Positions 3,978 through 31,936 of a stretch of 64,000 nucleotides of DNA are shown here, one piece after another. The DNA lies in contig OX597821.1 in the NCBI GenBank assembly GCA_951406725.2, positions 1,240,001 to 1,304,000 of the forward strand, read 5' to 3'. Source of the stretch: Octopus vulgaris. Its lineage: Eukaryota. The position numbers were made by a program, and so were the translations under genes. Numbering within the stretch: position 1 is the first letter of the stretch; each line of letters opens with the position of its first letter. Below the pieces are notes generated by a model. That model was not told the origin of the DNA. It saw only the letters and a program-made list of their open reading frames with translations, and did not search any database.

Positions 3978-4024
3978 ACCACGACGTTTCGGCTGATTTC
4001 CTCTCCACCCTTCATCAGGTGTCC
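3978..4024 (-). ncRNA. Minimal type I hammerhead ribozyme motif
   Basis: Minus strand: GGACAC-CTGATGA-AGGGTG GAGAGGAAAT CAGCC-GAAAC-GTC-GTG. One mismatch in stem II; loopless AC/GT stem III of the dimer-type HHRs. Confidence 0.65.
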
Positions 4025-4412: not shown

Positions 4413-4453
4413 GACACCTGATGAAGACTGGAGAGTAAATCAGCCGAAACGTC
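4413..4453 (+). ncRNA. Minimal type I hammerhead ribozyme motif, 3' side of stem I lost
   Basis: GACAC-CTGATGA-AGACTG GAGAGTAAAT CAGCC-GAAAC-GTC, followed by a deletion relative to the other copies. Confidence 0.55.
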
Positions 4454-15687: not shown

Positions 15688-16025
15688 CACAGTTAAGAAG
15701 TTTGCCTCCCAACCACGTGGTTCCAGGACCAGTGTCACTACGCAGAACCTAAGACAATTGTCTCCTACCATAGCCTCGGGACAAGCAATGCCACATGATT
15801 AAATTTGGTTGGCAGAAACTGTGTTTGTACCCAACTTCATCTTAATGACCGCCATTGCTTTCTTTACTTTCCTGCAAATTAGAAGTTTAGCGAAAGAGAG
15901 CGATAGAATGAGTACCAGATTAATTAAAAAAACTAAGTGCTGTGGTCAATCTGTTCGAGTAAAATCTTTCATAACGATGCCCCAGTATGGCCAAAGTTCA
16001 ATGACTGAAACATGTAAAATGTAAA
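15685..16025 (+). mobile_element. SINE family C, diverged
   Basis: AAGAAGTTTGCCTCCCAACCAC...GATAGAATGAGTACCAG...ATGACTGAAACA. Confidence 0.6.
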
Positions 16026-16049
16026 AAATTTTACTGACCGTCAAACTAA

Positions 16050-16260
16050 TACAGGGTGGGGCTGAGAGGACGGACGGTTTTGAAATGGCTATTGCTCCAC
16101 ACATAATAATCAGGGGTGTTGTACTCTGGGGAGTTAAGTGACCACATGTTACGGGTGGTGTGGTCGCAGAAATTGTCTGACAGCCATGAGTGGGTTTCCC
16201 TGGTTGTGTGACATGGTGCAGACTGCTGTTTTTTTTACCGACGGTGCCCAACTGATCCTA
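16050..16260 (-). mobile_element. Tc1/mariner (maT-like) transposase fragment with a TIR-like end
   Basis: Minus strand SWLSDNFCDHTTRNMWSLNSPEYNTPDYYVW resembles WPPNSPDLNPLDYYVW; TA-CAGGGTG terminus at 16050. Confidence 0.55.
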
Positions 16261-16359
16261 CTATACTGTGTAGACGAGAAAATGTAAAAAAAGAAATTCT
16301 GCATGCGCAAAGCTAAAAATATAAAATGGCGACAATTTACCCACCGCACACCCCGCTGC

Positions 16360-16648
16360 TTGGAATTTTATTTTAATTCTCTCGCAGGAAGGCCCAGTTG
16401 ACGATGTGTCCTGTCTTGCCTTCGAAACACGACTGAGCTAACTAGCGACAGCTGATGACGGTGGATTTTTCCTTGTGTAGCATGTCCTGTACTTGTTTTC
16501 TTGTTATAAATTTTTGTCTTTCCGTTTCTACGTCTTGTTGTGGTGTCCTGTACTTACGTATATTTATTTATATATGCATGTATATATACATGTAGATGTA
16601 GGTACGTACATATATATTTGTATGTATGCATATATTTTTATTTATCAC

Positions 16649-16660
<12 letters not shown>
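16360..16660 (+). repeat. Dispersed repeat family D with permuted HHR-like motifs, copy 1
   Basis: GCAGGAAGGC...GCCTTCGAAACACG...CAGCTGATGACGG...GTCCTGTAC...CATGTAGATGTAGGTACGTAC, shared with the copies at 43.4, 49.2 and 56.1 kb. Confidence 0.65.
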
Positions 16661-16700
<40 letters not shown>

Positions 16701-16754
16701 CATAAAAATAAATATATATATATGTATATATATACATGTGTATATATATATATA

Positions 16755-17540
16755 TAACTTAAAATTGTATGATAGATTGCCGTCAATTCATTCTCTCTTA
16801 CCTGTTTGTGTCTGCCTTCCAATTGCTGTGTTTTTTTACTGAGATCTCCCTTTTTAGTAGAAGAAATAGCTATAACTCTTTGACTGCTATTTCTAAATTC
16901 GGTCTGTGGTAAGGCAATTCGTTGCTAAACCCTTTATTGCTTAGTATTACTTAAATTTTCCTCTAATGAGGCTTTTACATGCCGAAGACTACTTGGTGTA
17001 ATTGATAATTATTCCAAATTAATTAATTTCACCCTTCATTATTACGGATAACCATATTTTATCTCAGTAGATGATCATAGCATCTTGTTTTGGCTACACG
17101 CGGGTGGGAAGGGGCTGGTGACACAATCCTTTCATTCACACGTTGAGTTTGGTGATACTAGTTGCGGATTCTAGCTCGCTCTGATACTGAGTTGAGTTGG
17201 TGCCTTCTAGTATCTCAAAATTCAATATATAATCACTTATGATTATAGTATTCTACGCTGAAGAGAAAAGAAGTTTGGGTAACGTAGAATTATTTAATAT
17301 TTAATTCTCATGCTTTCCTAAAAACTTGATTTCGAAACGTGCGTCCGTAGATAACTTAAAATTGTATGATAGATTGCCGTCAATTCATTCTCTCTTACCT
17401 GTTTGTGTCTGCCTTCCAATTGCTGTGTTTTTTACTGAGATCTCCCTTTTTAGTAGAAGAAATAGCTATAACTCTTTGACTGCTATTTCTAAATTCGGTC
17501 TGTGGTAAGGCAATTCGTTGCTAAACCCTTTATTGCTTAG

Positions 17541-17543
<3 letters not shown>
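16755..17543 (+). mobile_element. Retrozyme-like / non-autonomous Penelope-type element: ~597-bp unit plus ~190-bp partial repeat, carrying a type I hammerhead ribozyme
   Basis: Near-identical direct repeats 16755-16946 and 17352-17543 (TAACTTAAAATTGTATGATAG...CTTTATTGCTTAGTA). Non-coding, flanked by (TA)n on both sides, HHR immediately before the second repeat. Confidence 0.75.
17252..17351 (+). ncRNA. Type I hammerhead ribozyme, canonical core
   Basis: Stem I TCTACG/CGTAGA (6 bp), CTGAAGA at 17258-17264, long stem II (GAAA...TTTC with inner AGAATTA/TAATTCT), GAAA at 17334-17337, stem III AC-GTGC-GT, GTC cleavage triplet at 17343-17345. Confidence 0.85.
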
Positions 17544-17571
<28 letters not shown>

Positions 17572-17977
17572 ATATATACATATATATATATATACACACA
17601 CACATATATATAAATATATATAAGTACTTATACGCATGTACACTCTGTGTGTGTGCAGTGATGGATGTATGCATGCATATATGTATAAGTGTGTATGTGT
17701 GTACGTGTGCGTGTATACATTCTTGTACATGTGTATTTGCCCTTGTGAATTTTGAAACTTGTGTCTGTCCGTCCGTGTGTGCACTGCTTAATCTCTGGCA
17801 ACTCATCGCGTGACACAGAATAACTATAAAGGACGGAAATTAGGACTTACTGGAAAAGAAACCACGTGCATTTAAATACTCATATCCTCACACTCATAAT
17901 GTACACACATACACACACACACACACACACGCATGTATGCATACATACAAACATACATACAAACATACATACATACA

Positions 17978-18008
<31 letters not shown>

Positions 18009-18039
18009 GTAAGTACATGCATAGGTATATATATATATG

Positions 18040-18092
<53 letters not shown>

Positions 18093-18110
18093 GCATACAT
18101 ATATATGCAT

Positions 18111-18177
<67 letters not shown>

Positions 18178-18192
18178 CACACACACACATAT

Positions 18193-19052
<860 letters not shown>

Positions 19053-26666: not shown

Positions 26667-27840
<1,174 letters not shown>

Positions 27841-31298: not shown

Positions 31299-31936
31299 TA
31301 TTTCTTTATTGCCCACAAGGGCAGACGAAATACCTATTTCTTTACTACCCACAAGGGGCTAAACACTGAGGGGACAAACAAGAACAGACAAACGGATTAA
31401 GTCAATTACATCGACCCCAATGCGTAACTGGTACTTAATTTATCGACCCCGAAAGGATGAAAGGCAAAGTCGACCTCGGTGGAATTTGAACTCAGAACGT
31501 AACGGCAGACGAAATACCTATTTCTTTACTACCCACAAGGGGCTAAACACAGAGGGAACAAACAAGAACAGACAAACGGATTAAGTCAATTACATCGACC
31601 CCAATACGTAACTGGTACTTAATTTATCGACCCCGAAAGGATGAAAGGCAAAGTCGACCTCGGCGGAATTTGAACTCAGAATGTAACGGCAGACAAAATA
31701 CCTATTTCTTTACTACCCACAAGGGTCTAAACACAGAGTGGACAAACAAGGGCAGACAAACGGATTTATTCGATTACATCGACCCCAGCGGGTAACTGGT
31801 ACTTAATTTATCGACCCCGAAAGGATGAAAGGCAATGTCGACCTCGGCGGAATTTGAACTCAGAACGTAACGGCAGACGAAATACCCCTAAGCATTTCGT
31901 CCGGCGTGCTAACCACTCTGCCAGCTCGCAGCCTTC
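31299..31936 (-). mobile_element. SINE family A with three tandem ~184-bp internal units and a 16-bp TSD
   Basis: Unit boundaries near 31321, 31505, 31689 and 31873. TSD CCATTTGTATGTTTCT at 31283-31298 and 31937-31952. Confidence 0.9.

Follow-up and report, generated by a model that had tools for sequence, protein, structure and literature searches.

The element at 16755–17543 of the window, a 64,000-nt stretch of Octopus vulgaris contig OX597821.1, is real, mobile and recent. On balance we favour reading it as a young copy of a non-LTR retrozyme whose 596-nt, non-coding unit bears a hammerhead motif and is mobilized in trans by the RT/GIY-YIG enzyme of a Neptune-type Penelope-like element (PLE), probably from a circular monomer RNA.

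Results

A partial tandem of a non-coding unit within a TA microsatellite

The element sits in a 2.8-Gb genome that is rich in microsatellites and, as both the sequence and TRF indicate, is flanked on either side by (TA)n, as originally predicted. TRF places these unstranded flanks at 16559–16756 and 17541–17622, the left, (TA)n-rich target microsatellite ending at 16754 where the element begins. The direct repeats of about 190 bp, 596–597 bp apart, were confirmed as 16755–16947 (193 nt) and 17352–17543 (192 nt), with 99.5% identity. Their sole difference is one T in a T-run, so that the period shortens from 597 to 596 across the run. The 5′ copy (+ strand) corresponds to unit positions 1–193 and opens a full, circularly permuted unit of 597 nt (16755–17351, + strand; ORF check, alignment and folding). 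Its start is the 5′ truncation point, 6–7 nt past the predicted cleavage site after C17345, close to the ~7 nt first estimated. The 3′ copy (+ strand) is a partial second unit that ends at a 3′-end site, A, with TAT overlapping the flank. The whole copy is a 1.32-mer partial tandem containing a single ribozyme, and the (TA)n flank hides any target-site duplication.

The unit is 35% GC, non-coding and strongly self-paired, folding better than shuffled sequences both as a linear RNA (z −5.3) and as a circle (z −7.4, 25 shuffles). Stop-to-stop frames within it reach at most 67 aa, bearing out the absence of a transposon-type ORF, and a tRNA scan of the element found none. A helix shared across subfamilies (16897–16914 with 16967–16984; + strand) surrounds site A and is a likely candidate for recognition by the RT. 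A second conserved hairpin (16992–17036) is followed by another 3′-end site, B (16992–17057 in all, + strand), the stretch from A to B forming a ~100-nt tail. Elsewhere in the window, a 184-bp tandem array of 3.1 copies (31320–31886) and a 211-bp array of 2 copies (27038–27456) resemble a common dispersed repeat of the same genome.

A young subfamily within a large superfamily

The 19-nt 3′ half of the ribozyme has 277 exact matches in the genome, as against 0 for the reversed control. The element is not a local duplication. A subfamily-specific 24-mer has 336 exact matches (control, 0). The subfamily comprises about 300 units that are 98.5% identical to that of the window (82 arms, 54 loci); with copies dispersed and circularly permuted, the predicted recent insertion of a ~1.3-mer into a TA microsatellite was upheld. 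The longest array, at L027, holds at least 4.5 units. With 6,968 matches, a degenerate motif based on the conserved part of the unit marks out a superfamily of non-coding units of 540–600 nt; where measurable, the periods of older subfamilies are 543–594 nt. Four units folded as circles, including the window's, gave z-scores of −5.2 to −8.4 (25 shuffles each). The description of an undescribed mobile circular-RNA family therefore holds for the family but not for its class, non-LTR retrozymes having been described already, and the circularity of its RNA is our inference.

Contigs from four sequencing runs, their type guessed as RNA, cover 16824–17536, a match uninformative about transcription, strand, ends or circles; among the sequence holders on record for the element, none is recorded as RNA. 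Contigs of run X13, whose organism is labelled differently, extend over much of the unit and differ little from it. Hence, close relatives of the family exist beyond this genome's label.

A type I hammerhead conserved across subfamilies

The hammerhead motif lies at 17252–17351 on the + strand. Stem I pairs TCTACG (17252–57) with CGTAGA (17346–51), the core CTGAAGA lies at 17258–64, and a 69-nt stem II (17265–17333) is followed by GAAA and by a stem III of 2 bp with a palindromic loop (17337–44). C17 is at 17345, the predicted point of cleavage. A type I hammerhead is found in each unit across the copies inspected, which come from several subfamilies. The original prediction of a type I hammerhead was thus right in its parts; the epithet canonical fits less well, given the length of stem II and an Rfam scan of 16000–18500 in which none of 68 matches at E≤1 was to a hammerhead family, only microsatellite-driven miRNA and snoRNA matches being returned.

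Covariation was assessed in 11 natural copies hand-picked from several subfamilies, against a structure hand-set from those same sequences, which favours it. Pairing holds in 99% of the alignment's cells, a level reached by 0 of 500 shuffles and approached by no slid control (≤36%). Double-sided, compensatory changes occur in 5 of the 6 stem I pairs, the core C3–G8 pair becomes U3–A8 in one subfamily, and older-subfamily copies present further variants of stem I. These compensatory changes, together with the 277 matches against none for the reversed control, argue that the motif is not a product of chance. Judged from such comparisons the ribozyme motif is under selection, and self-cutting is predicted. 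Two folding results tell against the reading we favour: on its own the hammerhead region is no better than shuffles (z −1.4), and within a monomer stem III pairs with a probability of less than 0.01, the self-duplex being worth −8.8 kcal/mol. Hammerheads that act as dimers are known, and a weak stem III with a palindromic loop fits them (PMC4209133).

A loose hammerhead pattern search of the window was uninformative, giving 12 matches where 7.3 were expected and missing the long-stem motif. Another short repeat, with the hammerhead-like core CTGATGA...GAAACGT, has three dispersed copies in the window (3983–4018 on the − strand; 4418–4453 and 51288–51323 on the + strand), which are probably the ends of another Penelope-type family. 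Other hammerhead families with a long stem II are frequent in DNA flanking the loci (L039, L065, L107, L126, L128, L222, L229 and L239). The genome therefore holds many more ribozyme-bearing repeats.

Insertions have two fixed 3′ ends and paired arms

The insertion sample comprised all 59 clusters into which matches 1–100 of the 336 listed for the 24-mer fell. Twenty-nine loci are two-armed with outward-pointing 3′ ends, 26 are single-armed and 4 are of other kinds; a TA run adjoins at least one flank in 58 of the 59 and both flanks in 46. The 5′ ends vary along the unit, as in random truncation, and the 3′ ends are fixed, at site A (unit ~187–199, mostly 193) or, ~100 nt away, at site B (unit ~288–303). 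The repeats of the window copy, originally called terminal, are consequently neither fixed termini nor LTRs. Site A falls within the conserved helix and site B just past the second hairpin.

The two arms of an insertion follow a strict rule. Twenty-three of the 29 two-arm loci combine an A end with a B end, none combines A with A or B with B, and 6 have one end outside both ranges (p=1.2e-7 against 50:50). In all 23 classifiable two-arm insertions the A–B tail is present on one end only. More than half of the clean junctions (28/49) overlap the TA flank by at least 3 nt, compared with 15–27% for random breakpoints, although junctions are not independent of one another. Partial tandems, an inverted 5′-truncated arm and a microsatellite target are marks of mobilization by PLEs, and that a PLE mobilized the element is very probable.

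The tail region taken alone has a z-score of −1.6 and, while its alignment is conserved, shows double-sided covariation in only 5 of 22 pairs; its structure is therefore less secure than that of the ribozyme. By eye, an ACCC plus T-rich motif precedes both 3′-end sites (~16927–16947 and ~17033–17050 in the window) and recurs in other subfamilies, making it a candidate start signal.

One haplotype per insertion and read-through of the ribozyme

Template use was analysed in 82 arms from 54 loci, after L156, L157, L167, L171 and L177 had been excluded for duplication, gaps or complexity. Arms have a median length of 260 nt. The predicted cleavage site is crossed 0, 1, 2, 3 or 4 times in 37, 29, 14, 1 and 1 arms, respectively, and 64 of 67 arrivals at it read on through. 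Since arms mostly cross the ribozyme site rather than stop there, the template was mostly continuous over it. A 5′ end near the cleavage site had been offered as proof of processing, which we do not accept, enrichment being marginal: 3 of 82 arms begin at unit 592–597 where 0.84 would be expected (p=0.053), and 6 at unit 582–597 against 2.2 expected (p=0.025). The event at L156/L157, among those left out, likewise begins at unit 593. Four loci (L008, L163, L178 and L189) have arms starting at unit 582–584, where palindromic stem III begins, and a Neptune copy (L066:1981) starts at the equivalent point. Such ends possibly reflect pausing of the RT at the ribozyme.

Of the sequence variants scored at 76 loci, 11 are common to at least three loci. 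When the 8 commonest are considered, none of the 44 multi-unit arms that are informative is mixed, whereas the null gives a mean of 29 and a minimum of 20; L025 is the one discordant locus among 32 with two arms (null mean 18, minimum 11). Extending the comparison to all 11 sites brings the discordant loci to 3 of 53, and in two of these the site concerned lies next to a homopolymer. L025 is a single insertion with segments from two haplotypes, which suggests that two template RNAs may have contributed to one event. Among 73 private variants, 59 occur in one unit, 10 in every unit and 4 in some. Haplotype uniformity and read-through fit repeated copying of one monomer, probably circular.

We consider it likely that the template was a circular RNA. 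A circle is the simplest template, but re-annealing of the template or homogeneous linear masters would also do, and homogeneous units are expected from these too. The main alternative retains a PLE-mobilized, non-autonomous element and dispenses with the circle, the template being either uncleaved linear read-through of tandem masters or a linear monomer copied repeatedly through template jumping. Uncleaved RNA explains the 64/67 read-through equally well, possible multi-unit masters exist (L027), and in vitro cleavage is dispensable for insertion and uncleaved RNA is the dominant substrate of the only PLE tested (PMC11167929). It also counts against the reading we favour that 8 of 9 Xenopus retrozymes tested gave no cleavage (10.64898/2026.07.22.740005). 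Copying from linear arrays would, however, shrink them every generation, given the median arm length. Moreover, because the 8 common variants are uniform in 44/44 arms and 10 locus-private variants are found in every unit, multimers are regenerated from monomers, and the ribozyme core has been kept, with covariation, over diverged subfamilies. A linear template is hence unlikely, if far from negligible.

Neptune-type elements as candidate helpers

Intact, young Neptune-type PLEs are present in the same genome and share the (TA)n target; the label follows the domain description in bioRxiv 10.1101/2021.04.23.441226. Two intact RT/GIY-YIG families encode proteins of 781 and 775 aa, with 117/117 scored matches identical in the latter. 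Copies of both families terminate in (TA)n and bear hammerhead-like motifs, the two 3′ ends being separated by 35 and ~33 nt, respectively, and A+B arm pairing recurs in all 3 twin-arm Neptune-type insertions seen (L063, L069 and L225). The 781-aa family is represented at L061–L068 by a very young element of ~4.7 kb (for example L066:1981-6768), with an upstream ORF ahead of the RT/GIY-YIG ORF; its tail measures 35 nt, and the core of its hammerhead-like motif has the U3–A8 variant, as in one retrozyme subfamily. The 775-aa family (L223–L225 and L069) has a period of ~4,271 bp and no fewer than 117 copies with identical protein; the core of its hammerhead-like motif is CCGAAGA at these loci and CTGAAGA in L034.

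The 66 PLE loci compared, a small fraction of those in the genome, yielded no pseudo-LTR sequence in common with the unit. This lack of kinship in the sample and the tail lengths of the intact families (35 and ~33 nt against ~100 nt) both tell against the reading we favour, and the Neptune-type enzymes stand as candidate helpers. Unit matches near GIY-YIG genes at L038, L057, L072 and L209 were rejected as parents, since each is an insertion of its own in an adjoining TA tract or flank. A post-ribozyme stretch, TTAAAATTGTAT, resembles by eye the tail of the 781-aa family; it is AT-rich and missing in other subfamilies, neither blastn nor nhmmer retrieved the resemblance, and it was likewise set aside.

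The copies might instead be 5′-truncated ends, or pseudo-LTR tandems, of an autonomous Penelope-like family outside the sample. Every insertion mark is PLE-like, 24 of 57 Xenopus retrozyme families matched transposable elements, nearly all PLEs (10.64898/2026.07.22.740005), and the set examined is a small part of 6,968 motif matches and 18,170 RT candidates. Against this, units lie head to tail without an intervening ORF, and all measurable subfamily periods are 540–600 nt. Searches from four older subfamilies showed no unit joined to an ORF among the loci inspected, and Neptune-protein searches of superfamily loci returned fragments only, those inspected not being joined to the unit. The unit is thus not the pseudo-LTR of an autonomous element in any superfamily locus sampled, in keeping with the original prediction, and an autonomous parent is improbable. 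LINE twin priming produces inversions and LINEs are present (L064 ORF), but spread by LINEs, or by DNA rolling-circle or satellite processes with the ribozyme as passenger, is more improbable still, as there is no poly(A) tail, the fixed 3′ ends are internal, the outward arms have A+B ends and the strict (TA)n targeting is that of Neptune families.

Discussion

The trans-mobilization that we favour would begin with transcription of a tandem copy. Hammerheads, probably acting as dimers or aided by protein, would release the monomer, and its ligation would give a self-paired circle, as the structure and known retrozymes suggest. A PLE enzyme would then bind the two conserved stem-loops, nick (TA)n and prime cDNA at site A or B, helped by 1–4 nt of TA pairing; the fixed ends are observed, the enzyme is presumed. 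The RT would go back over the ribozyme junction for 0.1 to >4 rounds, the observed lengths implying near-random stops. In about half of the insertions the opposite target strand would prime at whichever site the first had not used, on a template of the same haplotype, yielding the inverted arm seen in the data. In this scheme priming at site A, followed by 1.32 rounds of extension, produced the lone arm of the window copy.

A bolder version is tentative and, in our estimate, rather doubtful: that an old, repeatedly re-expanding circular ribozyme RNA lineage of ~550–600 nt parasitizes Neptune through RNA structure and not sequence, a dimeric RT copying one circle from two starts 100 nt apart onto both nicked (TA)n strands. 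If this were true, the insertions would prove from the genome that an animal circRNA undergoes rolling-circle reverse transcription, and a single two-primer reaction would account for both the tail and the inverted arm of PLEs.

Non-LTR retrozymes were defined by Cervera & de la Peña (2020, PMC7229834), with circles in coral, mussel and axolotl and PLEs as candidate helpers. Li, Clavereau & Pollet (2026, bioRxiv 10.64898/2026.07.22.740005) argue for a PLE origin, with cleavage in 1 of 9 constructs and a sampling without molluscs. PLE help has so far been deduced from co-occurrence and pseudo-LTR similarity, these two sources calling the mechanism open. The family described here offers insertion-level evidence on how retrozymes move: two start sites, strict A+B arm pairing and one haplotype per insertion. 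It also coexists with two very young, intact Neptune-type enzymes. With the 596-nt RNA, two candidate proteins and the (TA)n target, in vitro assays of a kind already in use could directly test whether the template is circular or linear, what governs tail length and where the inverted arm comes from. Literature listings with few subscription journals among them showed no paper on a cephalopod retrozyme and none on A+B arm pairing in retrozymes.

Among known systems, plant LTR retrozymes likewise consist of a hammerhead-bearing, non-coding unit of ~600 nt and a pair of direct repeats enclosing it (per PMC7229834 and 10.64898/2026.07.22.740005). Their ribozyme is type III, whereas here it is type I, occurs once in the copy and lies between repeats that are not fixed LTRs. 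Endonuclease-bearing (EN+) Neptune-type PLEs (10.1101/2021.04.23.441226; PMC11167929; PMC4209133) resemble our element in their partial tandems, inverted 5′-truncated copy, tail on one end and (TA)n targeting, and also in a hammerhead upstream of the 3′ ends and two internal start sites. Indeed, Frangieh et al. (2024, PMC11167929) describe two internal RT starts that bound the PLE tail in vitro, both strands being nicked and extended with no need for cleavage, and these starts and tail match the A+B pattern. Unlike EN+ PLEs, the element has no RT/GIY-YIG ORF, and its tail is ~100 nt against a published 30–40 bp.

The closest likeness is to metazoan non-LTR retrozymes (PMC7229834; 10.64898/2026.07.22.740005), which share the non-coding tandem unit, one type I hammerhead, a short palindromic stem III, low GC (<50%), a self-paired fold, the absence of fixed LTRs and co-occurrence with PLEs. 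The 596-nt unit exceeds the 170–400 nt of PMC7229834 and lies inside the 51–972 bp of 10.64898/2026.07.22.740005. The element departs from them in its 69-nt stem II and in existing mostly as dispersed 0.2–3-mers whose arms may be inverted and whose 3′ ends are fixed at two sites. Unlike retrozymes akin to PLE pseudo-LTRs, it matches no sampled pseudo-LTR. The class is known, and this family is a variant of the non-LTR retrozyme, set apart by its ~100-nt tail, by arms that strictly follow a two-site rule, by the size of its superfamily and by having no parent in the sample that matches it in sequence.
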